The position numbers and the translations under genes are program-made. A stretch of 64,000 nt of DNA from Candidatus Multivoradales bacterium (GTDB taxonomy: Bacteria > Acidobacteriota > Thermoanaerobaculia > Multivoradales > J023): positions 128,001 through 192,000 of the forward strand of contig CBDFLE010000005.1 in the NCBI GenBank assembly GCA_965248925.1. The letters are read 5' to 3'. Positions 8,848-28,111 of the stretch are shown here, piece after piece (positions within the stretch are counted from its first letter, which is position 1; each line of letters begins with the position of its first letter). The notes beneath the pieces were generated by a model. That model ran no database searches, was not told where the DNA came from, and was given only the letters and a program-made list of their open reading frames with translations.

Positions 8848-9933
8848 ATGGCAAGACTGCACCAACTATTCAGCCAGCTGAAAGACGATGGGGGATCGGA
8901 CCTGCATCTCACCGTCGGTCTACAGCCGCGCATGCGGATCGATGGTGAGCTGGCCGACGTGGCAGGTTGGCCGGAGTTGACGGCAGGGGAGCTGCTCGAC
9001 ATGATGCGCGAGTTGGTCAACGACGAGCAGTGGGACGACTATCAGCAATGCGGCGATTTGGATTTCGCCTACGGCTTCGAGGGGGTTGCCCGGTTCCGCG
9101 CCAACTACCTGCGCCAGCAGCGGGGCGCGGCGGCGGTCTTTCGCATCATTCCCGAGAAGATTCTCACCTTCGAGCAGCTCGGCATGCCGGCGGCGATTGC
9201 CGATTTGGCCAATTTGCACCGCGGCCTAGTGCTGATCACCGGGCCCACTGGCTCTGGCAAATCGACCACCTTGGCGGCGATCATCGATCACATCAACGCT
9301 ACCTACAGCAAGCACATCGTCACCATCGAGGATCCGGTGGAATTCGTTCACCCGAACAAACGGAGCGTGCTGTCACAGCGCGAGGTGGGTAGCGACGCGG
9401 TGAGTTTCGCGGCGGCGCTTAGGGTGGCGGTGCGCCAAGATGCCGATGTGGTGCTAGTTGGTGAGATGCGCGATCTGGAAACCATCGCTTTGGCGATCAC
9501 CGCCGCCGAGATGGGCGCGCTGGTTTTCGGCACCTTGCACACCAACAACGCCGCCAAGACCATCGACCGAATCATCGATGCCTTCCCGGCCAAAGAGCAG
9601 GCGCAGATCCGTACCACCTTGTCGGAATCGATCACCGCTATCGTTTCTCAGCTGCTGCTGCGCCGCCAAGGCGGCGGCCGGGTAGCGGCGCACGAGATCC
9701 TACTGCGCACCAGCGGGCTGCCCAATGTAGTGCGCGAGGGCAACACTTCGATGCTGCGCTCGATCATCCAGGGCGGTCGGGCGCGTGGCATGATCATGAT
9801 GGACGAATCGCTGATCGCCCTGGTCAAGAGCCAGCAGGTCAGTGCTGAGGAAGCCTACCTCAAGGCCGAAGATAAGCCACGTTTCCAGGCGTTGATGGAG
9901 AAAACACTTGGCACGGCAGACAGTGACCCCTGA
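8848..9933 (+). CDS. pilT: PilT family type IV pilus retraction ATPase (second copy)
   Basis: GSDLHL, GPTGSGKSTT, TIEDPVE, VGEMRD, FGTLHT. Confidence 0.92.
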   Translation: MARLHQLFSQLKDDGGSDLHLTVGLQPRMRIDGELADVAGWPELTAGELLDMMRELVNDEQWDDYQQCGDLDFAYGFEGVARFRANYLRQQRGAAAVFRIIPEKILTFEQLGMPAAIADLANLHRGLVLITGPTGSGKSTTLAAIIDHINATYSKHIVTIEDPVEFVHPNKRSVLSQREVGSDAVSFAAALRVAVRQDADVVLVGEMRDLETIALAITAAEMGALVFGTLHTNNAAKTIDRIIDAFPAKEQAQIRTTLSESITAIVSQLLLRRQGGGRVAAHEILLRTSGLPNVVREGNTSMLRSIIQGGRARGMIMMDESLIALVKSQQVSAEEAYLKAEDKPRFQALMEKTLGTADSDP

Positions 9934-12697: not shown

Positions 12698-12955
12698 CTA
12701 TTCGCCGTCCAAGGTCTCGGCGAGGCTGTTGGCGGTCAAGATCCGCTTGGCCCAGCGCCGGAGTTGTTTGCTGTTCGCTGCTTCGATGCGCCGCCGAGTG
12801 ACCTCGTCGACGTCACCGAATCGACTCTCGACAAGGTCGATCAGCAGTTGTGCCTGCCCCTGCTTCCTGCCCTTCGTCAGGCCTTGTTTGAGGCCCTGCT
12901 CACGCCCTTCTCGGAGCCACTGTGCAGGCCATTGTGCGACGGTTTCACGGAGCAT
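12698..12955 (-). CDS. Putative intragenic small protein (RpnS-like antitoxin, 85 aa) in frame within rpn copy 1
   Basis: AGGAGGT-acgcaac-ATG inside the gene, just before the C-terminal domain MLRETVAQW...LDGE. Confidence 0.65.
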   Translation of the reverse strand: MLRETVAQWPAQWLREGREQGLKQGLTKGRKQGQAQLLIDLVESRFGDVDEVTRRRIEAANSKQLRRWAKRILTANSLAETLDGE

Positions 12956-13672
12956 GTTGCGTACCTCCTGCAAATCTTCAAGCACCGGTATCTCGGCGTC
13001 TGGGTAGCGAGCTGGCAGCAAAGAGTGCTGCAAGAAAGCCAAGAACGTGCGACTCAGCCGCGGATCGGCTATGGCCTTCAACCTCTCGACCAATCTTAGC
13101 GCATGGCGCCGCAACTGTCCCGCGCCGCTGCTGCGCTCCAGGTCGAAGAGGATCGACGCCAGGTTGTCGCTGGCTGCCGACGGCGAGGCGCGATGCTCGT
13201 CGATCAGCAAGTAGCGCAGCCGTGGCCGATAGTCGACGCAGTCGTCCGGACCGGGGGTGATCAGCTCGGCGACATCGCTGGGCGCGGTCCATGGCCGACT
13301 GCCATTGTAGATCACCAGCGGCACCACCGGGGGCAGGGTCTCTCCCGGCTTGACCTGGCCGCCGCGGAGTAGCCCTTCGTAGAACAGGCCGAGATAGGTC
13401 ATCAAGCGAAGAGCCATCCAGGGCTCGTTGCGCGACTGGAACTCGAACAACAGGTAGATGTAGATCCACCCCAGGCGGTGGCGCAATCGCCACAGCAGGT
13501 CCTTCTCACGCCGTGCCAGGCGATCGGAGATTTCTACTTCGGGGGCTTTCTCCAGCGTCGAGAAGTCGAGCCCCTGGATCCAATCCCCGCCGCCATGGGC
13601 GCGCAGCAAGTCTTCCACCATCGGTCGGTGAGAGAAAAGCAGGCGGTATGCGCTGTCGTGTTTTTCTGCCAC
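12698..13672 (-). CDS. Rpn family recombination-promoting nuclease (YhgA/Transposase_31, PD-(D/E)XK), copy 1
   Basis: HDSAYRLLFS, REKDLLWR, YIYLLFEFQS, MALRLMTY, LPPVVPLVIYNG; GTG start after AGGAGG; DUF4351-like C-terminus. Confidence 0.88.
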   Translation of the reverse strand: MAEKHDSAYRLLFSHRPMVEDLLRAHGGGDWIQGLDFSTLEKAPEVEISDRLARREKDLLWRLRHRLGWIYIYLLFEFQSRNEPWMALRLMTYLGLFYEGLLRGGQVKPGETLPPVVPLVIYNGSRPWTAPSDVAELITPGPDDCVDYRPRLRYLLIDEHRASPSAASDNLASILFDLERSSGAGQLRRHALRLVERLKAIADPRLSRTFLAFLQHSLLPARYPDAEIPVLEDLQEVRNMLRETVAQWPAQWLREGREQGLKQGLTKGRKQGQAQLLIDLVESRFGDVDEVTRRRIEAANSKQLRRWAKRILTANSLAETLDGE

Positions 13673-13844
13673 TGTCCCTGACCTCCTTTGGTCAAGGACA
13701 TAGACGCAAAACGTTGGTGGAATCTTGCAGGGATCTTGCGACAGGGCGTCGGAGCCTGCTCTAATCGGCTCAGTGGGTGGACTCTTCTGAGCCATTCGAG
13801 AGGGGGCTGGCACCGGCCGAGAAGCAGCCAGCGGGAGGGTAGCT

Positions 13845-16800
13845 ATGCACAAGATCTTCATCAGCTATAGCCGAAGCTCAGCCAGTGACGTGGCCCAAGA
13901 CCTGGACAGGCAGCTAAGCGCCGAGGGTTGTGAAGTTTTTCTCGATACCAAGATGCCGCCCGGCGCGATCTGGCCGACTGCACTGAAGGCAGCGATCGAC
14001 GCCGCCGATGCCATGATCCTGCTGCTGAGCGACGGGGTCGAGAACAGTGACTTCGTCAAATGGGAGGTCGATCATGCCCGCGGCCGTATGGGCCAGGGTG
14101 CGGCCTTGAGTCTGATTCCCATCGAGGTCGACTTTCAGGGGCAACTGGACCCGCGCTTGAAGGCCAGGCTGGGGAGCATCCAGACCTGCTCGTGGGGTCG
14201 TCAGCAGGGCTTCGATGTGCTGCTCGACTTGATCCGCTCCGGCCTTGGCATTCCGGAGGTAGATGCGGTCGCCGAGACCTACCGGGCATGGACACTCGCC
14301 AACCCGCAGCCGGTGCGCTTGATCGGGCTTGGCCCCGACACCAATCTACCTCTGGAGTCGATCTACGTGCCGCTGCGGGTTTCGAGGTGCGAGCGCGATG
14401 GTTTGCATCAGTTGGCGGGTGGTGCGATGTCTGGCCGCGATGTTCTTGGCCGCGGTGCAGAGGAGTTACAGGTTGATTCTCTCTTCCGTGAGGGTGTCAG
14501 CGCCAGTCGGCATACCCTGCTGCTCGGCGAACCCGGCTCCGGCAAGACCACGGCATTGATAAAACTCTATGCTCTGTGCCTCGAGGCGGCCGTTGAGAAT
14601 CTCGGCCTGGCTGGTGGTACATTGCCGGTACCTGTGCGCTTGCGCCACTTGAGCGCCGATGATCTTGGCCGGCCGCTGGGGGAAACCCTTGATCGGGCCC
14701 TGGGCAAACGCTTCACCAAGCCGCCGCTGCCCAGCACCCTCGATCGTCTGTGGCGCGCCGGTCGTCCCTTGCTGCTACTGCTCGATGGTCTCGATGAGAT
14801 CACCGACGACGCCTTGCGGACCGAGGTGTGCGACTATCTGGCATGCCAGCTTGGGGAGGCCGCCGGCAGCAGCGTCCGGGCGGTAGTGACTTGCCGTCGG
14901 GCCTATTCGCGATCAGTAGAGCTGGGCGCAGATTTTTGCACCTTGGAAGTGCGACCGCTCGGACCCAAAGAGGCCGACGACCTAGTTAAGTTGTGGTTCC
15001 GGGCGGCCTCCCACACCATGCCCGACTACTCAGCCCAGCGTGCCCTACGGCGCTCCCAACAGCTGCGCCGGGCGCTGCAAGACAGCGTCAACGAAGGAGC
15101 CCAACTGCGGGTGATCGCTGGCTGGCCACTGATGCTGACCCTGCTCTGTGTGGTGATGGCGAAGCGTGGTGAGATACCGCGCCGACGGGTGGAGTTCTAT
15201 CAACGCTGTGTGCGGCTGTTACTCGAAGAGTGGGGGCCACTCCAGGAGCGCGGTCACAAGGCACCCATCACTACCGATCGAGCGTTGCAGGCCCTGCGCC
15301 CATTGGCCTATGAACTGCGTTCCAATCCTCGCGGTGAGTTGCGCCGGCTACAGGTCGTGCGCTACATCCAGCAGGCTTTGCCGCGGGGTGCGGCGCTGCC
15401 AAGCCGAGTGCTCGAGTGGCTGCGTTGCGAGGCCGGCGTGCTCGATGAGCTGGCGCCACATCGCTTTGGTTTTACCCATCTGGCGCTCGAGGAGTACCTT
15501 GCAGCCGAGCACATCGCCGAGCAGCCCGATGATCAGTTGCTGCTGGACCTCGTCGGCCGCTTCGACGGTGAGCGCTGGTACGAGGTCGCTCAGCTACTGG
15601 TGGCACTGCCCGGCCGCGGCATGTTTGCCCGTCTGATGGAACAGCTGCTCGATGGACCAGCTCTGCTACAACAGGCAGACCTATTGAGACTCTGCATTGA
15701 AGAGGCCGACGAGGTCGATGTAACTCCATTCCTCAAGCGCCTGGCCGACCCAAATCTCGATGCCACTCGCCAGGCCGCCCTATTGCGGCTGATGAGTGGC
15801 CAGCGGGATCCGCGCCTGCTAGAGCAGGCGCGGGCCCTGGCCAGTGGCGAGAATGTTGCGGTAGTCGCTCTCGCCGAACGCTTGATGAATTTGGCTGAGC
15901 AGGCGACTGATGGGTCGACCGAGCGATGCGTTTACCTGGTAGCCCACTCAGCTGATGCAGAACCAGCGGCGGAGGTGGCCAAGGCTCTGCGCCGCGGCGG
16001 CGTGCGGATCTACGAGGTACCGCCCGATGAGCTGTGGTTGGACCATTTCGACCGCATCTGCGAAAACTGTGGTGGCGGCGTCGTGGTGTTGGTCAGCGGC
16101 GGCGAGCCGCCGTGGAGAGACCCCGACGTGGCCGATTTCCTGGAGATTTTCTCCAACCTCGAAGGGCGTGCGCTAACCCTGGCCCGGTTGCCCGGCGCAC
16201 CGTCAGGTTGGGAGCGACTAGAAGACGCTTGGGCCGAGCGTTGCGGCCCGGTGGTCGATCTAACCATCGCCTGTGGCCCAGAGCAGGTCATCGCCCTCGT
16301 TGCCTCTCTGGCTGGCACCGGTCGGCGGGCGCCCGAGACTTCCGTCGGGAGCAGCGATTCAGAGTTCCGTGCCAGGGCCGTCCAGCGGCTCTTGGTGGAG
16401 CCGGTCACCGGCATGCGTTTCCTGTGGGTTGATGGTGGCGAGTTGCGCATGGGTACAGACGAGGAGAGCTGGCCAGGTTTCGAAGATGAATTCTTCGCTG
16501 CCGCCCGGCCGGCCCATGGGGTAGAAGTGTCAGGTTTCTGGCTGGCGGAGACGCCGATGACTAACCGGCAGTACAAGTTTTTCATGGAAGCAGATGAGTT
16601 CGAAGGCAAGCCGCCCGGGCGGTGGACGGATAGGCGCTTCTCAGCCGAAGATCAACCGGTGGTGGGGGTGAGTTGGAGCGCGGCGAGGAGCTGCGCCGCT
16701 TGGCTAGGGCGACAGCTGGGGCAGGGGCGCGATGCTGATCTACCTAGTGAAGCGCAGTGGGAGTGGGCGGCTCGGGGCAAGGATGGGCGAATCTATCCTT

Positions 16801-17174
16801 GGGGTGATGCCGAGCCCACCAGCGAGTTGGCTTGTTTCGGGCTTGACTGGCAGGAGGATCGGCCAGCATCGGTCGGCTCATATCCGGCAGGCCGGGGCCC
16901 CTTCGGTCATCTCGATGTGGCTGGTCTGGTTTGGGAGTGGTGCCTCGATCACTTCGATGGAGGCACTTACAGTCAGCGGTATGGGGCCCCGCCAGAGCGT
17001 GATCCGATTGTCTGGGGCAAGATTGAAAATACTGACGAGGTACGTGTCCTCCGGGGCGGCGGCTGGCCCGATCCCGCGCCGGACCTGCGCTCTGCGATCC
17101 GCTTCAGGTTCCCGGCCAGGAGCCGGTACTCGGTTATCGGCTTTCGTGTGGCCGTCTCTCCCCCGAGCCTTTGA
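13845..17174 (+). CDS. DGR target 1: NLR-like TIR - NACHT - TIR-like - FGE-sulfatase/C-type-lectin-fold protein
   Basis: KIFISYSRS...FVKWEV TIR; Walker A GEPGSGKT; Walker B LLLLDGLDE; FGE motifs LPSEAQWEWAARG, YPWG, GLVWEWC, RVLRGGGW, IGFRV; 3' end is VR1. Confidence 0.9.
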   Translation: MHKIFISYSRSSASDVAQDLDRQLSAEGCEVFLDTKMPPGAIWPTALKAAIDAADAMILLLSDGVENSDFVKWEVDHARGRMGQGAALSLIPIEVDFQGQLDPRLKARLGSIQTCSWGRQQGFDVLLDLIRSGLGIPEVDAVAETYRAWTLANPQPVRLIGLGPDTNLPLESIYVPLRVSRCERDGLHQLAGGAMSGRDVLGRGAEELQVDSLFREGVSASRHTLLLGEPGSGKTTALIKLYALCLEAAVENLGLAGGTLPVPVRLRHLSADDLGRPLGETLDRALGKRFTKPPLPSTLDRLWRAGRPLLLLLDGLDEITDDALRTEVCDYLACQLGEAAGSSVRAVVTCRRAYSRSVELGADFCTLEVRPLGPKEADDLVKLWFRAASHTMPDYSAQRALRRSQQLRRALQDSVNEGAQLRVIAGWPLMLTLLCVVMAKRGEIPRRRVEFYQRCVRLLLEEWGPLQERGHKAPITTDRALQALRPLAYELRSNPRGELRRLQVVRYIQQALPRGAALPSRVLEWLRCEAGVLDELAPHRFGFTHLALEEYLAAEHIAEQPDDQLLLDLVGRFDGERWYEVAQLLVALPGRGMFARLMEQLLDGPALLQQADLLRLCIEEADEVDVTPFLKRLADPNLDATRQAALLRLMSGQRDPRLLEQARALASGENVAVVALAERLMNLAEQATDGSTERCVYLVAHSADAEPAAEVAKALRRGGVRIYEVPPDELWLDHFDRICENCGGGVVVLVSGGEPPWRDPDVADFLEIFSNLEGRALTLARLPGAPSGWERLEDAWAERCGPVVDLTIACGPEQVIALVASLAGTGRRAPETSVGSSDSEFRARAVQRLLVEPVTGMRFLWVDGGELRMGTDEESWPGFEDEFFAAARPAHGVEVSGFWLAETPMTNRQYKFFMEADEFEGKPPGRWTDRRFSAEDQPVVGVSWSAARSCAAWLGRQLGQGRDADLPSEAQWEWAARGKDGRIYPWGDAEPTSELACFGLDWQEDRPASVGSYPAGRGPFGHLDVAGLVWEWCLDHFDGGTYSQRYGAPPERDPIVWGKIENTDEVRVLRGGGWPDPAPDLRSAIRFRFPARSRYSVIGFRVAVSPPSL
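17053..17168 (+). repeat. DGR variable repeat VR1
   Basis: 116 bp colinear with TR 18310-18425; 14 mismatches, all at TR adenines. Confidence 0.96.
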
Positions 17175-17204
17175 TTCTTGTTCATTGGGTGTCTTTTCTG
17201 CGGG

Positions 17205-17227
17205 GTCCAGGGGCAGAGCCCCTGGAC
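17205..17227 (+). promoter_or_regulatory. GC-rich hairpin/cruciform downstream of VR1 (DGR target-recognition element)
   Basis: GTCCAGGGGC-AGA-GCCCCTGGAC, perfect 10-bp stem with 3-nt loop; near-identical hairpin follows VR2. Confidence 0.85.
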
Positions 17228-17303
17228 TCATTTGAAGCGGGTTGTCGACATATCTGGCGAAGTTTGTCAAAGAACTCTGCCAAAGTTGTAAGCTCGTTGC
17301 TCT

Positions 17304-17900
17304 ATGAAGCTCTCCATTCGCGAGACGGCGACCGTCCTGGGCAAGAGCGAGCGCCAGGTGCGCTACATGATCCAGCAAGGTGGGCTGAAGGCAGTCAAAC
17401 ATGGCTCTAGGTGGCGCATCGACGCCGATCACCTGCCTCTGGACGAAGCCCAGCGTCGGGCGCTGGCGCGGCGCATCGACTCGGCTCGGCAAGCCTTCGA
17501 GAAGGGCCTGGCGCCGGCCGAGAAAGCGGTCGGTGAAAGGCGCAAGACCTACACCTTGAACAACCTGGTGGCGTTCGGCACGGGGGCAGAGATTTATCGC
17601 GAGATGCTCTCTTCGCTGGGCTTTGGCGATGTTGCATGCGGCCGGCTGCACGAAGCTCTGATGCTGGTGAGTCGGGGCTTTCACAGCTTCCACCCCAAGG
17701 AGAAGGCGGCCTGTTATTGCGCGGCGCGCTGCGCCGCCGCCACGGCGGTGGGGGAACTTCTCCTGCGGGCGGCTGATGGGGTGGAGCACGGTTGGGCCAG
17801 GCGCCTGGAGGAGGAACTCATTCCCAAAATCGCTGGCCTGGTCGCGGCCAATGAAAAGCGCTCTCGTCGGCACCGCTTCGGCCGTCGCGACGAACTCTGA
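17304..17900 (+). CDS. DGR-associated protein: excisionase/MerR-like HTH fused to four-helix-bundle (IVP/Avd-like) domain
   Basis: LSIRETATVLGKSERQVRYMIQQGGLKAVKHGSRWRI HTH; C-terminal helical domain (LNNLVAF...SRGFHS...EKAACYCAAR). Confidence 0.7.
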   Translation: MKLSIRETATVLGKSERQVRYMIQQGGLKAVKHGSRWRIDADHLPLDEAQRRALARRIDSARQAFEKGLAPAEKAVGERRKTYTLNNLVAFGTGAEIYREMLSSLGFGDVACGRLHEALMLVSRGFHSFHPKEKAACYCAARCAAATAVGELLLRAADGVEHGWARRLEEELIPKIAGLVAANEKRSRRHRFGRRDEL

Positions 17901-17907
17901 GTGCTGC

Positions 17908-18246
17908 ATGGAGCACGCCCCTCTGCTCCGCTCTACCATGGGTCTGTGCGCAGATCTGTTGGAGAGCCTTGAAGCAATTTCCGGCTCGACTCCCCTGCGT
18001 CGCCACCTGGCCGAGGTGGTGCTGCGGTTGCTCGACCACGTGACCTTGGCTGTCGAGCGCCACGACCGGCTCGAAAGCCTGCGCGAGGCCGATGCGGCGC
18101 TAGCGGTGTTGCGGGTTCATCTGACCCTTGCGCTCGAGCTTGAGCTGCTCGATGAGGAAGCCTTCATCGAGCTTGTGGAGCAGGCCGATGGGATTGGACG
18201 GCAGATCGGCGGCTGGTTGCGCCAGCTCGGGCGGTACAGCGAATGA
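17908..18246 (+). CDS. avd: DGR accessory variability determinant Avd (four-helix bundle, 112 aa)
   Basis: L..AD..L..LR..L.LA.EL and IGRQIGGWL ending; immediately upstream of TR and RT. Confidence 0.85.
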   Translation: MEHAPLLRSTMGLCADLLESLEAISGSTPLRRHLAEVVLRLLDHVTLAVERHDRLESLREADAALAVLRVHLTLALELELLDEEAFIELVEQADGIGRQIGGWLRQLGRYSE

Positions 18247-18309
18247 GCGGCGGTGCGGTAAGCTGCGGCGGGCAGACCCGATATCCCGTTTTTGCTTTTG
18301 ATCTGCTCT

Positions 18310-18425
18310 GGGGCGGCGGCTGGAACAATCCCGCGCAGAACCTGCGCTCTGCGATCCGCAACAGGAACCCGGCCAGGAACCGGAACTCGAATATCGGCTT
18401 TCGTGTGGCCGTCTCTCCCCCGAAC
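18310..18425 (+). ncRNA. DGR template repeat (TR)
   Basis: AAC/AAT-rich copy (9 Asn codons, 23 A) of both VRs, located between avd and RT. Confidence 0.96.
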
Positions 18426-18552
18426 ACGCTGACCGCGAGGCACCGTGCAGGGTCTTGTCCTGATGTCTATCGAGGCGTCGAATATCTTGAGCCGGCCCGT
18501 TCTGGTAGGTCCGAAAAGGCCGAAGGTCCGGGTCGGCAACTATGAGTTGCCG

Positions 18553-19554
18553 ATGAGGCGTTGGGGCAACCTCTTCGCCGCAGTCGCCGCTCCGCTATTT
18601 CTGTGGAGGGCCTGGCGACGGTTCCGGCGCGGCAAGCGCAAGCGGCCCTCTGTGCTTGCCTTTGAGCAGCGCGCGGAGCGCGAGGTGTTGCTGTTGGCAC
18701 GGCAGCTCGATGCTGCTACTTATTGCCCTGGGCAGTTCCGCAAGCTCCTGCTACGGGAGCCCAAGCGGCGCTTGATCGCCGCCGCGCCAGTGCGTGACCG
18801 GGTAGTGCATCACGCGATCCACGGTGCCTTGGCGCCGCTTCTCGACCGAGGCCTTGTCGACTCGACCTTCGCCTGCCTGGAGGGCCGAGGTAGCCATCGC
18901 GCGGTGCTGGCCTGTTGGCAGAGCATGCGGCGTTGGCGCTATGTGCTGGCGCTCGACATTCGGCACTACTTTCTCAGCATCGACCGCGGGATTCTCTTGC
19001 ACGAGGTGATGGCACGGCGGATCAAGGACTGGCGGCTGCTGGAACTGCTCCGCACGGTGGCCGGGAGCGGCGCCGGGCTCTACCGCGGCCGCCAAGTCGT
19101 CGAGTTACTGCAACTGCCAGCAGGCTTTCCTCCCATCGGGTGCGGCTTGCCGATTGGCAACCTCACCAGTCAGTGGTGGGGTAATCACTACTTGTCGGGC
19201 CTCGATCACTACATCAAGCGGCAGCTGAAGGTGCCGGGCTACCAGCGCTACATGGACGATCTGACCCTCTTCGCCGACTCGCGTTCTCAGCTCCTGGAGG
19301 CACGGCAGGCGATCGCAGAATGGTTGCTTTGGCATCGCAAATTACTCCTCAAGCGGCCGGCCGCTGAGCCTCGTTCGACCCGCCGGCCGCTGAGCTATCT
19401 CGGCTACCGGGTGGGGCGCGGTGGAGTGGCGCCGCTCCGAGGGGTCCTGCAACGCCTGGAGAGGCGGGTGGCTGAGCGTCTGCACAGCGGTGATGCCGAG
19501 GCGGTGGAGAGGACTCTCGCGGCTTACAAAGGGGTGGTCACTTTTGTCGGTTGA
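18553..19554 (+). CDS. DGR reverse transcriptase (333 aa)
   Basis: EPKRRLIAAAPVRDRVVHHAI, LDIRHYFLSID, GLPIGNLTSQ, QRYMDD, YLGY; no maturase or endonuclease domain. Confidence 0.95.
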   Translation: MRRWGNLFAAVAAPLFLWRAWRRFRRGKRKRPSVLAFEQRAEREVLLLARQLDAATYCPGQFRKLLLREPKRRLIAAAPVRDRVVHHAIHGALAPLLDRGLVDSTFACLEGRGSHRAVLACWQSMRRWRYVLALDIRHYFLSIDRGILLHEVMARRIKDWRLLELLRTVAGSGAGLYRGRQVVELLQLPAGFPPIGCGLPIGNLTSQWWGNHYLSGLDHYIKRQLKVPGYQRYMDDLTLFADSRSQLLEARQAIAEWLLWHRKLLLKRPAAEPRSTRRPLSYLGYRVGRGGVAPLRGVLQRLERRVAERLHSGDAEAVERTLAAYKGVVTFVG

Positions 19555-19650: not shown

Positions 19651-22600
19651 TCAAATTTCGTCCAAGAACACCGCCAGGGGCTCCGCCCCTGGACCCCGAA
19701 TGCACCGGAACAAGGCAGACAATGAGCAAGAATCAAAGGCTCGGGGGAGAGACGGCCACACGAAAGCCGATATTCGAGTTCCGGCTCCTGGCCGGGAGCC
19801 GGCGCGGATCGCAGAGCGCAGGCTCCGCGCGGGACTGCCCCAGCCGCCGCCCCGGAGGAACCTGGCATCACCCTCCTTCAGGTCAGGAAAGATCTCCCTG
19901 TACGCATCGTCCTTCTCGAACTCCCGAAGGTCGGGGTGGTCGCTATCGAGGCACCACTCCCACACGTTGCCGGCCAGGTCCAGGTGCCCATAGGGCCCGG
20001 CACCGGCCGGGTAGGCGCCTACGGGTGTGGGGTGTTCTTGGTGGTTGGCGAAGTTGGCCAGCTCGGGTGTGGGCTTGTCTTTCCCCCACGGGTAGTCACC
20101 TTTCGGTGCATCGGCTGCGGCTAGCCATTCGGCGCTGGTGGGCAGGTGGACCTGCTCGTGGCGCTGCTTGGCCAGCCAGGCGCAGTAGGCCATGGCCTCG
20201 AACCAGGACACGCCCACCACGGGTCGGTTGGGGGTGGTCAGCTGTGCCTGCCAGTTCTCGGGGGAGGTCCACTTCTCCTGCTGGCGTCGCTCCCAGCCAT
20301 CGTCGTCCCACCAGCGGCGGGATTCGTAGCCGCGCTCCTGGTCGACGAACACCAGATATTCATCCACCGTCACCGGATAGCGGCCCAGGCGCAGCCCCTC
20401 GACCGCAGAGACCGGTGGCCAGTCGGGGCGCCGCAGGCGTGGATCGCCGGCTCGGCCCAGGGCCGCCGCAACTTCGAGTCGCTTCTTGATGCCGATCTTG
20501 GCGGCGCCAGCCTTGGTGAAGATCTTGAGTGAGCGCTTCAGGGCCCGCTTGTATTCAGCGGTGACCGCCGACGGAGGCTGGTAGCCATAGGCTTTCACCG
20601 GCTCCAACATGGCACCGACCGCGGCCGCTACGCGGGCATCAGCGGCCAGGCTGGTGTCGTCGCCGCGAAGTGCCAGCAGTCTCCCGAGTAAACGGTCCAC
20701 CCGCCGGTCGCCGCCGCTGTCGAGCAGAGTGCCGGGGAGGATGGCCAGAGTCTCGCGCCATTGTGGATCTTCCAGGTGCTGCTCAACGATCGGCCACCAG
20801 TCGTCCTCGGGATTCTCGCTGCCATCGCCGAGCGAGGCGAGCTGCTTGGCTGCCAGAGCTTCCTGGAAAGTTAGATGCCAGAAACGCAGGTTGCGGCCGG
20901 CGAGTTCTTCGATAATGCCGCTGCTCGCGCACTCGAACTCCAGCCATCGCTTGGCCAGCTGGCGGCGGTCGGCGGTGGCCTTCAGCGCGGTGTAGAAGCG
21001 AAGCACCACCGGTTCGATGGCCAGCGCCGCGTCCTCGAGGCCGATCAATGACAGCTTGCCTCCCTCCTGATCCATCATCCGTAGTGCCAGCGCAGCCAAG
21101 GCGCTCCAGGCGAAGTGTTCCGTGAATCCTGCTGCCTTGCGCTGCTTGGCCCGCGCTTGGAGCAGCCAACGCAGCACCGCTGAGTAGACTCGCGAACGCC
21201 CTTCGGGTAGCTCTTGCTCGTTCCAGTGAATGACGCATAGGCAGGTCAGCATCACCGGGTTGGCGGCCAGGCGGCGTACTCGCGGGACGTCGATCATGGC
21301 GGAGCGCAGGGTCTCTTGGTAGCGCCTGACTTCACCGCTCAGCTGGGTGTGGATATCTAGACCGTGAAGAGCCTCTACCCACAGCTTCAGGAAGCGCCCG
21401 ATCTGGCCATCGTCGAAGGGCTGAATCTTGGCCACGGTGAAGCCCATGGCGAGGAGTTCGGCGGTCTGCACAGGACGACTGGCGACGGTGATCGGCCCCG
21501 GCCACTGAGCGGCGGCATCGGCCAGAACATCGAGCAAGCGGTGGCGCAGGCTCTGCTCGCCGACTTCGTCGAGACCATCGAGCAGAAGCCAGGCATCGCC
21601 CGCTTCGAGCAGCTGGCGCCAGGCTTGTCGCTGGCAATTGGCCGGGTTGGCGCGGGCGCTGGCGATCAGCAGGTCGAGCAGCCGGTCGCGGTCGTCACGG
21701 TGTCCGGGGGTGTCAGCCTGAGCGGTAAGGAGCTTCGCCAGCTGTGCGAAGCGTAGATAGATCGGTACTTTGGCTGGCTGGTCGGCGGGCAGAGCGAGAA
21801 AGTGCTGCCGCCAAGTGTTCCCACCAGGGCCCCGCAGGCCATGGCCGTCGCGGGCCAGCAGGGTGGCGGTGAGGCGCAAGAAGGTGGTCTTGCCGGCGCC
21901 AGGTTGGCCTTCGATCAGCAGCCGCGGGTGAGCGGCCAGCTGGTCTGCGAGGGGTTCGCCACCGGCACGCTCGAAATGCAGCAGTGCTACCTCCTGGTCC
22001 CGCTCGCTGGCCGTGGATCGGCTGAGCAGTGGGGTGTAGAGCTTCTCGATAGGACGAAGAATGGCCTTGCGGGCTTGGCCAGCTCGCGAGGCGATGCCGC
22101 GGATTTTGAGCAGGCCAAGGTCGGCGATGACCCCGTCGAGATAGCAAGGCAGATCGAGCCTGGGCGCGGGGCTCGGGCGGCGCCGTGAGCCGCGGGAAGA
22201 CTCGCTCGCACGGATTTCCACGCCAGCAGCACCTGGATCGGCGCCGAAGGTTGAGTTGTGCAGCAGCCGCATCTCGCCGCCGACCTGCGGCGTGCGCACT
22301 CGTGGCCAGATCCGCACTGCACCGTCCTCATCGATCTCCCCCCAGGTGTAACCCACCCGGCGTTCCTCTTGCTTGGAGCCGTAGTGCTCGAGACCGAAGA
22401 GCGACGGGGATTGGCAGGCGAGGCGTCCGCCGATGTCGCGCTCAATACCGGGCTGGTGCAGGTGGCCGTACAGGCATAGGGCAAATCTGTCGGGCGGACA
22501 GATACTGGCCTGAAACTCAGCACGGGCGGCTGGGGAGAACCAACCGGGCGGTTGGTGGAACATCAGCAGCGCCTGGGCGCAGTCGTCCAGCACGCTCAGC

Positions 22601-23274
22601 GGCGAGCTGCTGTTGGGTGGTGCCAGTGCGTGGTGGAGCTGCTCGACGGAGATCTCCAGGCGGTTAGCGAACTCGTCATCTGTCCTATTCTGCCGATACT
22701 GGCGCCAGGTGCTGTTGAGACCCACAACTGTCAGGGGAAATCCTGTGGGCGACACGGTGACTCGCAAGTCACCAAGGAAGTGCGAGAGGTGGAGCTCAGC
22801 CCATTTCGTGCTCACCACTGCCGGCACTAACCGCCGCTCTAGCCAGGCCAGGTACTCGGTGAAGAGAGGCTGCAGGAAGTCGGCATTGGGTTGCGACCCC
22901 CAGAGTTCGTCGTGCAAGCTGCGGAATGCCGGGCCATCATCATCCAACACTGAGAACTTGTAGACGGCGGTAGGCCTGGCGAGGTCGTGATTGCCTGGTA
23001 CCGGTACCACCAGCGGCCGGTCGCCGAAGGGTGCTAGCCAGCTGGTGACCTGATCGAGGAAAGCGTCAACCAGTTTGAACTGCTTCTGCTGGCCGGAGAA
23101 GCTGAGATCGCCGCTGAACAGCAGCAGATGAGGCGGGCCGAGCTGCTCGGCCATTGCGATCAGGTCGGCTTGTAGCTCGTGCTGAGCCTGCCACCAGTGC
23201 TCGCCACCGCGGCAGCCTGCGTGTAGATCTGAGAAGTGCAGCCAACGCACTGGCCGCGGTCGAGATCGGGGCAT
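19651..23274 (-). CDS. DGR target 2: NLR-like metallophosphoesterase - NACHT - FGE/CLec protein; frameshifted in VR2 (stop would be at 19733 without the deletion)
   Basis: WLHFSDLH, SGDL, PGNHD, GHLH calcineurin-like motifs; GQPGAGKT; LLLDGLDE; LAGNVWEWC, FLRGGGW; GGAGG RBS. Confidence 0.9.
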   Translation of the reverse strand: MPRSRPRPVRWLHFSDLHAGCRGGEHWWQAQHELQADLIAMAEQLGPPHLLLFSGDLSFSGQQKQFKLVDAFLDQVTSWLAPFGDRPLVVPVPGNHDLARPTAVYKFSVLDDDGPAFRSLHDELWGSQPNADFLQPLFTEYLAWLERRLVPAVVSTKWAELHLSHFLGDLRVTVSPTGFPLTVVGLNSTWRQYRQNRTDDEFANRLEISVEQLHHALAPPNSSSPLSVLDDCAQALLMFHQPPGWFSPAARAEFQASICPPDRFALCLYGHLHQPGIERDIGGRLACQSPSLFGLEHYGSKQEERRVGYTWGEIDEDGAVRIWPRVRTPQVGGEMRLLHNSTFGADPGAAGVEIRASESSRGSRRRPSPAPRLDLPCYLDGVIADLGLLKIRGIASRAGQARKAILRPIEKLYTPLLSRSTASERDQEVALLHFERAGGEPLADQLAAHPRLLIEGQPGAGKTTFLRLTATLLARDGHGLRGPGGNTWRQHFLALPADQPAKVPIYLRFAQLAKLLTAQADTPGHRDDRDRLLDLLIASARANPANCQRQAWRQLLEAGDAWLLLDGLDEVGEQSLRHRLLDVLADAAAQWPGPITVASRPVQTAELLAMGFTVAKIQPFDDGQIGRFLKLWVEALHGLDIHTQLSGEVRRYQETLRSAMIDVPRVRRLAANPVMLTCLCVIHWNEQELPEGRSRVYSAVLRWLLQARAKQRKAAGFTEHFAWSALAALALRMMDQEGGKLSLIGLEDAALAIEPVVLRFYTALKATADRRQLAKRWLEFECASSGIIEELAGRNLRFWHLTFQEALAAKQLASLGDGSENPEDDWWPIVEQHLEDPQWRETLAILPGTLLDSGGDRRVDRLLGRLLALRGDDTSLAADARVAAAVGAMLEPVKAYGYQPPSAVTAEYKRALKRSLKIFTKAGAAKIGIKKRLEVAAALGRAGDPRLRRPDWPPVSAVEGLRLGRYPVTVDEYLVFVDQERGYESRRWWDDDGWERRQQEKWTSPENWQAQLTTPNRPVVGVSWFEAMAYCAWLAKQRHEQVHLPTSAEWLAAADAPKGDYPWGKDKPTPELANFANHQEHPTPVGAYPAGAGPYGHLDLAGNVWEWCLDSDHPDLREFEKDDAYREIFPDLKEGDARFLRGGGWGSPARSLRSAIRAGSRPGAGTRISAFVWPSLPRAFDSCSLSALFRCIRGPGAEPLAVFLDEI
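19674..19692 (-). promoter_or_regulatory. GC-rich hairpin/cruciform downstream of VR2
   Basis: Minus strand CCAGGGGC-GGA-GCCCCTGG, 8-bp stem with 3-nt loop. Confidence 0.85.
19739..19853 (-). repeat. DGR variable repeat VR2 (carries a 1-nt deletion)
   Basis: 115 bp vs 116-bp TR; 11 substitutions plus 1 deletion, all at TR adenines. Confidence 0.95.
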
Positions 23275-23325: not shown

Positions 23326-23571
23326 CTATTCGCCGTCCAAGGTCTCGGCCAAGCTCGTGGCGGTCAAGATTCGTCTGGCCCAGCGCCTGAGCTGTCCGCT
23401 GTCCGCGGCCGCGATGCGCCGCCGAGAGACTTCGTCGACGTCACCGAAGCGGCTCTCGATGAGATCGATCAACAGTTGCGACTGCCCTTGCTTCAAGCCT
23501 TGCTTGAGTCCCTGCTCACGCCCTTCTCGGAGCCACTGTGCAGGCCATTGTGCGACGGTTTCGCGGAGCAT
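23326..23571 (-). CDS. Putative intragenic RpnS-like small protein (81 aa) in rpn copy 2
   Basis: AGGAGGT-acgaaac-ATG internal in-frame start, conserved with copy 1. Confidence 0.65.
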   Translation of the reverse strand: MLRETVAQWPAQWLREGREQGLKQGLKQGQSQLLIDLIESRFGDVDEVSRRRIAAADSGQLRRWARRILTATSLAETLDGE

Positions 23572-24288
23572 GTTTCGTACCTCCTGCAAATCTGTGAGCG
23601 CCGGTATCTCGGCGTCTGGGTAGCGAGCTGGCAGCAAAGAGTGCTGCAAGAAAGCCAAGAACGTGCGACTCAGCCGCGGATCGGCTATGGCCTTCAACCT
23701 CTCGACCAATCTTAGCGCATGGCGCCGCAACTGTCCCGCGCCGCTGCTGCGCTCTAGATCGAAGAGGATCGACGCCAGGTTGCCGCGGGTTGGCGACGGT
23801 GAGGCGCGGTGTTCGTCGATTAGCAGGTAGCGCAGCCGTGGCCGATAGTCGTCGCAGCCATCTGGACCTGGAGTGATTAGCTCGGCGACATCGGTGGGCG
23901 CGGTCCAGGGTCGACTGCCATTGTAGATCACCAGCGGTACCACCGGAGGCAGAGTCTCTCCTCGCTTGATCTGGCCGGCGCGGAGTAGCCCTTCGTAGAA
24001 GAGGCCGAGATAGGTCATCAAGCGAAGAGCCATCCAGGGCTCGTTGCGCGACTGGAACTCGAACAACAGGTAGATGTAGATCCACCCCAGGCGGTGGCGC
24101 AATCGCCAAACCAGGTCTTTCTCGCGCCGTGTCAGGCGATCGGAGATTTCTACTTCGGGGGCTTTCTCCAGGGTGGAGAAGTCGAGCCCCTGGATCCAAT
24201 CCCCGCCGCCATAGGCGCGCAGCAGGTCTTCCACCATCGGTCGGTGGGAGAAAAGCAGGCGATATGCGCTGTCGTGTTTTTCTGCCAC
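23326..24288 (-). CDS. Rpn family recombination-promoting nuclease, copy 2
   Basis: Near-identical paralog of 12698-13672; GTG start after AGGAGG. Confidence 0.88.
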   Translation of the reverse strand: MAEKHDSAYRLLFSHRPMVEDLLRAYGGGDWIQGLDFSTLEKAPEVEISDRLTRREKDLVWRLRHRLGWIYIYLLFEFQSRNEPWMALRLMTYLGLFYEGLLRAGQIKRGETLPPVVPLVIYNGSRPWTAPTDVAELITPGPDGCDDYRPRLRYLLIDEHRASPSPTRGNLASILFDLERSSGAGQLRRHALRLVERLKAIADPRLSRTFLAFLQHSLLPARYPDAEIPALTDLQEVRNMLRETVAQWPAQWLREGREQGLKQGLKQGQSQLLIDLIESRFGDVDEVSRRRIAAADSGQLRRWARRILTATSLAETLDGE

Positions 24289-24385
24289 TGTCCATGACCT
24301 CCTTTGGTCATGAACAGGGACGGAAAACTGTGACGGGATCTTGCGGGAGATCGGCGACAGGGCGTCAGAGCCTGCTCTACTCGGC

Positions 24386-24865
24386 TCAGTTGGCGGTCTT
24401 TTTCGGCCCGTCGCCGCCGCTTTTTGCCTCGCTCGCCGCCGCGTCGCCAAACACTTCGCGGGCTTTGTTCTTGAGCCGCTGCTGCGCGGCCTCGACTTCG
24501 CGTAGGGCGTCGCGTAGTTGCTCGAGTTCGTCGGCGCGGACCTCCAGACCTTCGCGGATAAACAGAGCAGCAGCCTCGGAACGGCTCTTGACGGCGCCGA
24601 TCGCCACCCAATCGTCGAGTCGCTTCAGAGTATCTCCGTCGACCCGCACCATCACCACCTGATCGCGCTGTTTCTTGCCCATCTTCTCGACGCTGTCTTT
24701 GAGGTCGGGGGAGACACAGACTACTTTTACCCTGGCACCTTCGCCGAGGTCGAAGCCGAGGTCGAGGTCGGCGAGGTCGTGCTCTAAGTCGATGCCGTGA
24801 TGGGAGAGACGTTCCGAGATGCGTTGCAGGATGCTGCCGAGGTCGAAGTGAATCTTGTTGGCCAT
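24386..24865 (-). CDS. Ribbon-helix-helix (CopG-like) domain protein with coiled coil
   Basis: VVMVRVDGDTLKRLDDWVAIGAVKSRSEAAALFIREGL; AAGGAG RBS. Confidence 0.7.
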   Translation of the reverse strand: MANKIHFDLGSILQRISERLSHHGIDLEHDLADLDLGFDLGEGARVKVVCVSPDLKDSVEKMGKKQRDQVVMVRVDGDTLKRLDDWVAIGAVKSRSEAAALFIREGLEVRADELEQLRDALREVEAAQQRLKNKAREVFGDAAASEAKSGGDGPKKTAN

Positions 24866-25755: not shown

Positions 25756-25984
25756 CCTGGCCTGGCCAAATCTGGGCTGATGTTAGATCTGTGCAGACAA
25801 TGGTCAAGCCTGTACGTTGATTGCTCCTGGCAGGTTTGGAGTGCTCACTTCACCCATTGATGTTGATCTAGATAACCTCCTTTGAGACAGTGCTTTACGT
25901 CAGCACTCAGACTCCACTTAAGGGCTTGGCATAAGCCTCGCTATGGCTCTTTCTCCTGAACGACCTAATTCCAGGAGATTGATC

Positions 25985-28111
25985 ATGCACATACCACGTT
26001 CTCGCACCCGTTCACCGCACTCCGCTCAGCAGCCGGGGTCTCTATTCCGTCAGGCAATTTGGATTCTGCTGCTGGCCGCTTTGGGCCCGGCGATGGCCAG
26101 CGCGGCGGGCCTGCTGGTCGCCGAGGGAGGCTTTGGCGGCGTGTTGGAGATCGAAGAGCACGATGTCCAGGTGACGATCAACAACGGCGTCGCGGTGACC
26201 ACGGTGGAGCAGGTGTTCCGCAACTTGGAGGATCGCCAGGTCGAGGCTCTCTACACTTTTCCAGTGCCCAAGGGCGCCTCGGTGGCCAACTTCAGTATGT
26301 GGATCGGCGGCAAGGAAATGGTCGGCGAGGTGCTGGAGAAGGAGCGCGCGCGGCAGATATACGATAGCTACAAACGTCAGCGCCGAGATCCTGGCCTGCT
26401 TGAGCAGGTGGATTTCAAGACCTTCGAGATGCGCATCTTCCCCATTGCCGCGCGAGCCGAGCAGCGTATCGAGATTACCTATTACCAAGAACTACAGGTC
26501 GACGATCATTGGGCCACCTATGTCTATCCGCTGGCCACTGTGGCCCACGAAGGGCGCGGCTCGGCTACTCGCGGCAGCTTTGCGGTCAATTTCGAGGTGC
26601 TTTCTGAGATTCCGATTGCCGAGATGATGAGCCCTAGCCACGGTGGGGATTTTGTTGTCGCCGAGCATGATCCGAGTCTCTGGCAGGCTTCTCTCGAAAC
26701 CCAAGGCGGCGATCTCAACCGCGATGTGGTGCTGGCTTACCGGCTGGCGCGACCGGTGACTGGCATCAATTTGGTGGCCTCGCGGGCCAATCCGCAGGAA
26801 GACGGTTTCTTTTTGCTCACCCTGACCACCGGTGAGAATCTGGACGCCAAGGTGGAGAGAGGTTCGGACTATGTCTTTGTCTTGGATATCTCGGGCTCGA
26901 TGGACAACGACGGCAAGCTGGCCTTGTCGCGGCGCTCGCTCGGCGCTTTCATCGACGTGCTGGCGGCAGAGGACCGCTTCGAGGTCATCACCTTCAATGT
27001 CTCTGCCAATGCCCTATTTGGCGATCTGCGGCCGGGCGATGCGCGCAGCAAGCAGCTGGCGAACGAGTTTCTCGACTCGCAGAAGGCTCGTGGTGGCACC
27101 ATGCTGGAGCCGGCGATTCGCGGTGCCTATAACTACAAAGCAGCCGATCGTCCGCTCAATGTGGTGATTCTCTCGGATGGCATGACCGAGGCCGGTGAAC
27201 GTGCCACTTTGCTGGCATTGGCCGCTGAGCGCCCCGCCGGCAGTCGCCTATTTACCATCGGCGTGGGCAATGAGGTCAACCGGCCGCTGTTGGAGCAGTT
27301 GGCTGAGGATGCAGGCGGACTGGCGGCTTTCGTCTCGCGCGGGGCTGACTTCGCTCGCCAAGCGCAGGCTTTCCGCCGCAAGTTGATGCGGCCAGTGGCG
27401 ACCAACGTGTCGATCGATCTCGAAGGGGCGGAGGTTAGCGGATTGGCTCCCGAGGGGCTGCCGAATCTCTACCACGGGGTGCCGCTGCGGCTCTACGGTC
27501 GCTATCGCAAGGCTGGGCCGGTGCGGGTGCGGCTGGCGGCGGCGATCGGCGGCGAGGAGTTCGAGCAGGTGGTCGAGTTCGACCTGCCGCAGCGAGCTGA
27601 CAATCCGGAAATCGAACGCATGTGGGCCTTCGAGCGCATCGACGATCTGCTCGCCGAGGGGGATCGTCGGGGTTCTCGCCGCTCGGTGATCGATGAAGTG
27701 GTACGGCTCGGCGAGGCTTTCTCGATCGTCACCGAGTACACCTCCTTTATCGTGCTCGAGAACGACGCCGAGTACCAACGATGGAAGATCGAACGGCGCA
27801 ACGTTCTGCGGCTGGCCCGCGACCGGTCTCGCCAAGCTGAAGTCCGCCAGCGCATCGAAACTCTGCGCCGCGGGGTGTCCGCTGATCTCGGGCCGGTACG
27901 TCCAGGAACGAAAGCGAAGACCGCGCCGCAGCTGGCTGCTGCCAACAAGCCGCTGCCGACCCCGAGCGCCGGCGGACCTGCGAGTAACCGACCCACCCGC
28001 CGGAACCGTGGCGACCTGCCGAGTTTCGGGGGTGGTGCCTTTGATTCGCTGACCGCGCTTGTGGTGTTAGCCATGGGGATGCTGTTCTGGTGGGGCCGGC
28101 GGTGGAATTGA
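25985..28111 (+). CDS. Secreted VIT + vWA domain protein with GlyGly-CTERM-like sorting signal
   Basis: Signal peptide; VIT (EALYTFPVPKGA, DPGLLEQ); vWA MIDAS FVLDISGSM, ILSDG; C-terminal FGGGAFD-TM-GRRWN. Confidence 0.85.
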   Translation: MHIPRSRTRSPHSAQQPGSLFRQAIWILLLAALGPAMASAAGLLVAEGGFGGVLEIEEHDVQVTINNGVAVTTVEQVFRNLEDRQVEALYTFPVPKGASVANFSMWIGGKEMVGEVLEKERARQIYDSYKRQRRDPGLLEQVDFKTFEMRIFPIAARAEQRIEITYYQELQVDDHWATYVYPLATVAHEGRGSATRGSFAVNFEVLSEIPIAEMMSPSHGGDFVVAEHDPSLWQASLETQGGDLNRDVVLAYRLARPVTGINLVASRANPQEDGFFLLTLTTGENLDAKVERGSDYVFVLDISGSMDNDGKLALSRRSLGAFIDVLAAEDRFEVITFNVSANALFGDLRPGDARSKQLANEFLDSQKARGGTMLEPAIRGAYNYKAADRPLNVVILSDGMTEAGERATLLALAAERPAGSRLFTIGVGNEVNRPLLEQLAEDAGGLAAFVSRGADFARQAQAFRRKLMRPVATNVSIDLEGAEVSGLAPEGLPNLYHGVPLRLYGRYRKAGPVRVRLAAAIGGEEFEQVVEFDLPQRADNPEIERMWAFERIDDLLAEGDRRGSRRSVIDEVVRLGEAFSIVTEYTSFIVLENDAEYQRWKIERRNVLRLARDRSRQAEVRQRIETLRRGVSADLGPVRPGTKAKTAPQLAAANKPLPTPSAGGPASNRPTRRNRGDLPSFGGGAFDSLTALVVLAMGMLFWWGRRWN

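Follow-up and report, generated by a model that had tools for sequence, protein, structure and literature searches.

The window analysed here is a 64,000-nucleotide (nt) stretch of contig CBDFLE010000005.1 (assembly GCA_965248925.1, forward-strand positions 128,001 to 192,000) from a Candidatus Multivoradales bacterium of the Acidobacteriota. It contains a complete diversity-generating retroelement (DGR) with two target genes, the second of which (target 2) is inverted. The variable repeat of target 2 (VR2) lacks one base opposite an adenine of the template repeat (TR), and the resulting frameshift deprives target 2 of the end of its sensor domain. The deletion is real: contig-level data refute the view that it is a consensus error. 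With a probability of roughly 0.6, we attribute the deletion to the last mutagenic retrohoming into VR2, through loss of register by the reverse transcriptase (RT) or through a slip in a run made by an A-to-G or A-to-C change, the product being a probable null allele that is tolerated as a by-product. What is described here is a real frameshift in a variable repeat (VR) of an intact DGR; both this kind of noncanonical outcome and the DGR class are already known.

The deletion in VR2 and its effect on target 2

A three-way alignment of the TR with the repeats of target 1 (VR1) and target 2 shows a single gap in VR2, where the template CGC-AAC-AGG-AAC is rendered as CGC-GCC-_GG-CTC. A prior reading made from the sequence only had put a 1-nt deletion at a TR adenine between 19801 and 19800, and both the alignment gap and the minus-strand read-out bear this out. 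By our own reading of the alignment, the missing base can be placed equally parsimoniously at A1, A2 or A4 of AACA, and is an adenine in every case. The features directly concerned are as follows:

18306..18423, plus strand: TR, with 22 adenines, chiefly in AAC/AAT codons (repeat alignment)
19651..23274, minus strand: target 2 as now read, 1207 aa, with Metallophos, NACHT and truncated FGE-sulfatase/CLec domains and a 49-residue out-of-frame tail (open reading frame (ORF), translation, Pfam)
19741..19857, minus strand: VR2, 117 nt, 90% identical to the TR, with 10 adenines substituted and 1 deleted (alignment)
19800..19801, minus strand: site of the missing base, opposite the TR motif AAC-A-GG (sequence, alignments and a 3785-nt contig in 4/4 runs)
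19733..19735, minus strand: template-frame TGA after ...IGFRVAVSPPSL, now out of frame (sequence; the homologous stop is seen in target 1)

Translation of 19651-23274(-) runs to ...LRSAIRA and then into an unrelated tail of 49 residues that extends to 19651. When the 3' part of VR2 is read by hand in the template frame, the canonical end ...NIGFRVAVSPPSL is still encoded, followed by the TGA at 19735-19733. Translation and template-frame reading thus agree with the earlier claim that target 2 leaves frame, loses its conserved end and runs on to 19651. The tail had also been said to match the shifted frame of VR1, which it does (58% over 57 aa against VR1 read one frame off), but this is a trivial consequence of the nucleotide sequence that the two repeats share.

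The frameshift costs target 2 the last 38 codons of the sensor domain, and with them the conserved GFRV strand and half of the variable codons; the Pfam FGE-sulfatase match reaches only profile position 240 of 255, compared with 254 of 255 in target 1. Solved FGE/CLec structures, among them that of the DGR target TvpA of T. denticola (2y3c), align to the extreme C-terminus of target 1, and the lost segment is therefore part of the fold. Judged from its sequence, the VR2 allele is probably null for ligand sensing. The rest of target 2 is an unbroken frame of 1158 codons that aligns with relatives over almost its whole length. Programmed frameshifting or transcriptional slippage that would restore the frame was considered and rejected: the site (...CGC GCC GGC TCC...) contains neither an X XXY YYZ heptamer nor an A/T run.

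The deletion is reproduced in independently built contigs

Four public runs cover the stretch; they come from one sample and one study, which is probably the source of the assembly. They are available as per-run contigs, and many of their records are 151 letters long, suggesting short reads. In all four runs, a contig of 3785 nt covers 19755-20300 with no other letters and no gaps (depths 15.3, 12.3, 10.7 and 6.5). At a threshold of 1%, no other letters or indel were found across VR2 in these contigs, which drop rare variants, and only the frameshifted VR2 allele is visible at this level. Because the four independently built contigs reproduce the deletion with 0 differences, it is the majority allele in the reads. 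The sequence-only reading had considered an assembly error as an alternative, with a true gene that is in frame. The genome is assembled in 6 contigs, suggesting long reads, which can miscount short runs, and the site lies between CC and GG. Nevertheless, the extra base is absent from all four of these contigs and no alternative contig was found at the 1% threshold, so that we regard a sequencing or consensus error in the hypervariable region as very improbable.

Parts of 16800-18320 have no cover in run X1, which is uninformative there. An exact-sequence cluster look-up in a collection of 15 billion proteins placed each target on a single contig, with no near-identical protein in that collection; the two further members of the target 2 cluster are 42-53-aa fragments of an unrelated protein and offer no allelic comparison.

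Two further contigs touch the repeats. In run X2 only, a 56-nt contig (depth 3.5) is one C short in the C5 run at 17160-17164, at the 3' end of VR1; this single contig, flagged for its depth below 5, could represent a minor frameshifted VR1 allele or a sequencing error. A 1234-nt contig present in runs X1, X3 and X4 (depths 6.6-12) matches 43 nt of the TR (18326-18368) with 6 differences and then departs from the window; it is probably the TR or VR of another DGR, in this genome or in another organism of the sample.

The DGR cassette is complete

The cassette is arranged as target 1-VR1, avd, TR, RT and inverted target 2-VR2. A direct repeat of 118 nt (17049-17166 versus 18306-18423, 88% identity) has an inverted copy at 19741-19857. 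Since the middle copy has an adenine at every differing position except one at the border, it is the TR and the other two are VR1 and VR2: 13 of 14 mismatches in VR1, and 10 of 11 in VR2 plus the deletion, lie at TR adenines, and the one non-adenine mismatch of each VR is at its 5' border. The remaining parts of the element are:

13845..17174, plus strand: target 1, 1109 aa, with TIR_2, NACHT and C-terminal FGE-sulfatase/CLec domains, ending in frame (ORF, translation, Pfam)
17049..17166, plus strand: VR1, 118 nt, 88% identical to the TR and free of indels, with 13 of 22 TR adenines changed (alignment)
17204..17228, plus strand: GC-rich hairpin 3' of VR1, with an 11-bp stem and AGA loop (DNA folding, -12.6 kcal/mol, z -3.9)
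17776..18246, plus strand: avd accessory gene, start codon uncertain (Pfam bAvd, 41.9 bits against a cut-off of 40, residues 74-150)
18445..19554, plus strand: DGR reverse transcriptase, ORF open from 18445 (Pfam RVT_1 3e-11; YMDD and IGNLTSQW motifs)
19674..19692, minus strand: GC-rich hairpin 3' of VR2, with an 8-bp stem and GGA loop, now within the run-on ORF (DNA folding, -10.9 kcal/mol, z -2.2)

The element shows a DGR-type RT, adenine-specific TR/VR differences, an Avd protein and, at the 3' end of lectin-fold genes, VRs followed by a putative initiation of mutagenic homing (IMH) sequence and a GC-rich inverted repeat. Divergence between VR and TR starts directly after ...CCCCCGA, and the candidate IMH is placed from this alignment. 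The VR2 hairpin is 96% complementary to the VR1 hairpin region. In target 1 the Pfam E-values are 2.6e-18 for TIR_2, 6.7e-10 for NACHT and 3.2e-40 for FGE-sulfatase (profile 5-254 of 255). The avd product scores 43.8 bits against the NCBIfam model DivGenRetAVD, under its cut-off of 80. The true start of the RT is probably near 18553, as relatives align from residue 37. Its IGNLTSQW and Y[QL]RYMDD motifs are invariant among the closest relatives in the RT alignment, and the SQ dipeptide is described as a mark of the DGR RT clade (PMC3521204). An NCBIfam scan of the RT gave no DGR-specific RT model above cut-off; with PADLOC, no model matched target 2, and the matches for target 1 and the RT were limited to generic TIR and RT models. 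The source genome (7.98 Mb in 6 contigs) contains at least 2 further DGR-like RTs according to an RT search, and the VRs beside these (L030, L064) are in frame.

Two YhgA/Transposase_31 (Rpn-like) genes, at 12698-13861(-) and 23326-24450(-), flank the whole cassette in direct orientation, with 89% protein identity and up to 95% DNA identity over 300 nt; recombination between the two copies could excise the cassette. A gene for a VIT-vWA protein of 722 aa lies at 25943-28111(+), 2.7 kb from target 2; ternary conflict systems linked to DGR targets are reported to include vWA proteins (Dore et al. 2024, PMC10907252).

Homologous targets end in frame, and the closest relative has lost a base in the same motif

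Comparison with related genomes, as suggested by the sequence-only reading, bore on the frameshift in two ways. A search for target 2 in 41 related genomes matched 23, the window's own included, and in all 9 of the best loci from other genomes (L007-L015) the target terminates in frame, GFR[VL] being followed by a stop only a few codons on. Matches by tblastn and HMMER that enter the tail with '1 TGA' had suggested a conserved shifted frame, a candidate that was rejected as the relatives end in frame; the apparent extension past their stop is the conserved hairpin translated as RGPGAEPL. This hairpin behind the VR is conserved at the nucleotide level across genera (L011-L013, and 17204-17228 and 19674-19692 in the window), where its translation gives RGPGAEPL or RGPGAQPL.

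The second result comes from the closest full relative, contig C121 of genome G168 (G168:C121, locus L026), the RT of which is 59% identical to that of the window. Its order is target-VR1, TR, RT and inverted target-VR2, with both targets of the type SIR2-NACHT-FGE, and its inverted target is 47% identical to window target 2 over residues 374-1181. This same inverted target carries a -1 deletion in the same CGC-AAC-A-GG-AAC motif (9230-9350, minus strand), and the shifted tails of the two proteins align. All 18 VR/TR mismatches of L026 fall on adenines, compared to one border mismatch off adenine in the window. By our reading of the alignment, the TRs of the two elements differ from each other at many non-adenine positions. 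Because each VR matches its own TR off the adenines and the TRs differ in this way, the two deletions are independent events. Other close relatives (L066 and L011-L013) are in frame. On the flanks examined, the G168:C121 cassette has no YhgA/Transposase_31 gene.

Frame-breaking indels recur in the VRs of related DGRs

We surveyed VR indels in two sets of loci. Set 1 comprised 45 loci, namely 5 GenBank contigs of metagenome-assembled genomes (MAGs) and 40 stretches around RT matches, which were found in 27 of 251 genomes of the order and include the other DGRs of the window's own genome; set 2 comprised 80 metagenome contigs. The alignment of closest-relative RTs held 5 sequences. A phylum-wide RT search matched 10 of 401 genomes, 6 of them new, and these 6 lie outside the survey. 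TR/VR pairs were taken from self-BLAST if they were at least 60 nt long with at least 4 mismatches, at least 75% of which lay on A of one copy. Frame breaks were checked at ORF level in set 1 and derived from net length alone in set 2.

Set 1 yielded pairs in 33 of 45 loci and, after the ambiguous pair L045 was dropped, 50 distinct VRs. In six of these, the net change in length is not divisible by three (L026 -1, L036 -1, L040 +2, L051 -1, L057 +1 and L059 +1), and all six lack an in-frame GFRV end. A seventh broken VR is the other one of L036, with a 13-nt loss between direct repeats (GCTTCC) immediately behind GFR, whereas the three single-base insertions of L025 sum to +3. In set 2, pairs in 46 of 80 loci gave 54 VRs, with frame-breaking differences in L090 (+2), L128 (+1) and L130 (+1) and three net differences that are multiples of three. 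Altogether, the frame is broken in 10 of the 104 other VRs, which lie in 9 of 79 loci; the figure is rough, because most of the genomes are MAGs that lack checks at read level, related loci are not independent of each other, and VRs interrupted by indels may escape the filter. Such a share of frame-broken repeats, each about 120 nt long, far exceeds what is usual in coding DNA. In three of the cassettes with a broken VR (the window, L026 and L040), the other target remains in frame.

The indels are concentrated at template adenines: 14 of 15 events, the window's included, lie at or next to a TR adenine, compared to an expected fraction of 0.39 (binomial P 2e-5). A dedicated hot spot at AACAGGAAC was also considered. 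This motif occurs in the TR of 60 of 109 pairs and makes up 19% of the adenines of those TRs; 4 of 10 events fall in it, which is not significant (binomial P ~0.1), and the hot spot was rejected.

In L036 (G017:C84; 3233-3373 and 6396-6517) both VRs are frame-broken, one of them by the -1 in an AAC codon, and the RT ORF keeps YxDD. L053 (G008:C233, 1314-1428) is a detached VR remnant: an adenine-mutagenised VR with an intact ...GFRLCAAPLDS* end lies only about 20 codons downstream of a stop and follows a small unrelated ORF, and of the neighbouring RT just the C-terminal half is left.

Origin of the deletion

We propose that the cDNA brought in by the last retrohoming into VR2 would have lacked one base at the AAC-A-GG site. 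By one route, the RT would have lost register at or next to the template adenine, e.g. if that adenine bulged out and the C after it was copied; by the other, an A-to-G or A-to-C change would have created a 3-base G or C run, and a polymerase would have slipped there during cDNA synthesis, integration or later replication. The data do not separate these routes, which explain the deletion equally well. The suggestion of the sequence-only reading that the RT may have skipped at a template A is in keeping with the adenine bias of the survey and with Wu et al. 2018 (see below), but a slip in a new G/C run accounts for the deletion equally well. For bRT-Avd, deletions at abasic template sites are reported (PMC7826257). 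The resulting protein would retain the effector and NACHT parts of target 2 without the end of the sensor fold, and the allele has persisted, perhaps as the paralogous target 1 is intact or as selection on such sensors is intermittent. A later full-length retrohoming would overwrite the lesion and restore the frame. Such repair, which had likewise been suggested, is mechanistically possible because the TR, avd, the RT and the VR2 hairpin are intact; that it takes place is something we infer. We read the frameshift as a tolerated by-product of DGR mutagenesis and not as a designed switch.

Several points weigh against this account. In the BPP-1 DGR rebuilt in E. coli, indels at adenines are reported to be negligible (preprint 10.64898/2026.07.21.739853), so that RT-made indels are no general high-rate outcome. 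The exact deleted base cannot be assigned, the aligner may draw gaps to adenine mismatches and thereby inflate the 14 of 15, and several survey indels lie in G or T runs, where replication slippage or MAG sequencing error is possible. The four runs, as one sample and probably the assembly source, test the assembler and not other populations, and an in-frame minority allele may have been dropped from their contigs as a rare variant. Finally, the loss of function of target 2 is inferred from its sequence.

Spontaneous decay unrelated to the DGR, i.e. a random deletion or replication slip after the last retrohoming with target 2 on its way to a pseudogene, would be favoured if a prior change of A to G or C had given a 3-base run (GCC-GGG or GCC-CGG). 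The position of the deletion is by itself weak evidence against it, as 38% of random positions in this TR lie at or next to an adenine, and the sample shows no VR diversity. Among the relatives, the 13 nt lost from the second VR of L036 are a classical slippage product that is not tied to adenines, and the -1 of L051 is at a non-adenine position. A decaying gene is, however, hard to square with the uninterrupted 1158 codons of the rest of target 2 or with a VR2 that has no non-adenine change inside the repeat, and both the adenine bias and the frequency of broken VRs in relatives argue for a link with mutagenesis. We therefore consider decay unlikely. The sequence-only reading had gone further and cast the frameshift as an on/off switch for a potentially toxic receptor. 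In the fuller form of this idea, +/-1 alleles made by the DGR at template adenines would silence one of two putatively costly or self-toxic NLR-like sensors in an adaptive and reversible OFF state, and later retrohoming would turn it ON. The frequency of broken VRs in this RT clade, the one target left in frame in three cassettes, the same -1 in the same target of the closest full relative and the intact repair machinery would all suit such a switch, and literature searches turned up no paper proposing it. Yet nothing shows that switching is regulated or selected. Only one allele is seen at contig level, with no ON/OFF mixture among contigs that drop rare variants; L036, with both VRs broken, looks like decay; and there is no demonstrable dedicated hot spot. 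Moreover, under neutrality or weak selection the proportion of broken VRs would simply follow from how often each event produces an indel, and frequency alone is no sign of selection. An adaptive switch is accordingly a decidedly improbable explanation.

The same low credence attaches to a wider version, in which frequent +/-1 slips would make the DGR of this NACHT-CLec lineage a diversifier and a reversible switch at once, with one sensor parked OFF (in the window and, independently, in G168:C121) and re-armed by the next retrohoming. If true, parking one sensor OFF would limit cost or autoimmunity. A VR frameshift as a switch is not proposed in the text consulted of the literature searched, including PMC7826257, 10.1101/2025.03.24.644984, 10.1101/2024.11.15.621889, PMC8008677 and PMC3521204.

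Significance

Preferring the by-product account, we regard the window as a read-checked example of the cost of DGR mutagenesis: some of the rewritten alleles are frameshifted nulls, and one of these can come to predominate in a natural population even though a cassette capable of repair is still intact. Useful by-products of the analysis are the independent recurrence at the same motif and the rough figure of about a tenth of VRs with a broken frame in this RT clade, a load that bears on estimates of DGR repertoire size. Automated annotation will label such targets pseudogenes or assign them wrong C-termini. If selection, and not error, lay behind the frequency of broken VRs, a putative bacterial antigen-sensor system would gain an on/off layer, which the present data do not demonstrate.

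Comparison with known systems

In classical contingency loci, a slipped-strand frameshift of +/-1 in a short run turns a surface or sensor gene off, reversibly in principle. The site in the window differs in having no long homopolymer or tandem repeat, and reversal would proceed by template-driven rewriting and not by back-slippage. In addition, no mixed ON/OFF population is seen in the contigs of the four runs from one sample.

The closest precedent for the lesion is the noncanonical mutagenesis described by Wu et al. 2018 (NAR, PMC5758913), who found the TR and VR to differ in length in 25 of 372 DGRs, with a frameshift in 11 of these; AAC adjoins 74% of the indels, which the authors attribute to RT slippage. 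VR2 of the window is of this kind, with a -1 within AAC-A-GG-AAC that shifts the ORF. The share of frameshifts is higher here (10 of 104 VRs in 9 of 79 loci, against 11 of 372 DGRs; PMC5758913), in a smaller sample from one clade. The window allele was also checked against independent contigs.

By architecture, the targets resemble those of 'clade 5D', cellular DGRs that diversify putative STAND/NACHT-CLec antigen sensors, e.g. DGR 3 of Thiohalocapsa PB-PSB1 (Dore et al. 2024, PNAS, PMC10907252). Shared traits are two paralogous targets, a central NACHT NTPase, a single C-terminal CLec domain with the VR and N-terminal effector-type domains, in our case TIR and metallophosphoesterase (PMC10907252). 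The likeness is one of target architecture (Pfam, both targets). The same two-target NACHT-CLec layout occurs in G168:C121, with SIR2 N-termini. The window host belongs to the Acidobacteriota; 'Acidobacteri', 'frameshift' and 'indel' have 0 occurrences in the main text of Dore et al. 2024 (PMC10907252).

With the prototype, the mtd-avd-TR-brt DGR of Bordetella phage BPP-1, the window element shares the clustering of avd, TR and RT, adenine-specific mismatches, and a lectin-fold gene that has the VR at its 3' end with a GC-rich hairpin behind it (PMC12875486). It differs in being chromosomal and in having two targets, one of them inverted downstream of the RT (PMC12875486). Its targets, moreover, are cytoplasmic-type NLR-like proteins, whereas that of BPP-1 is a phage tail fibre (PMC12875486).

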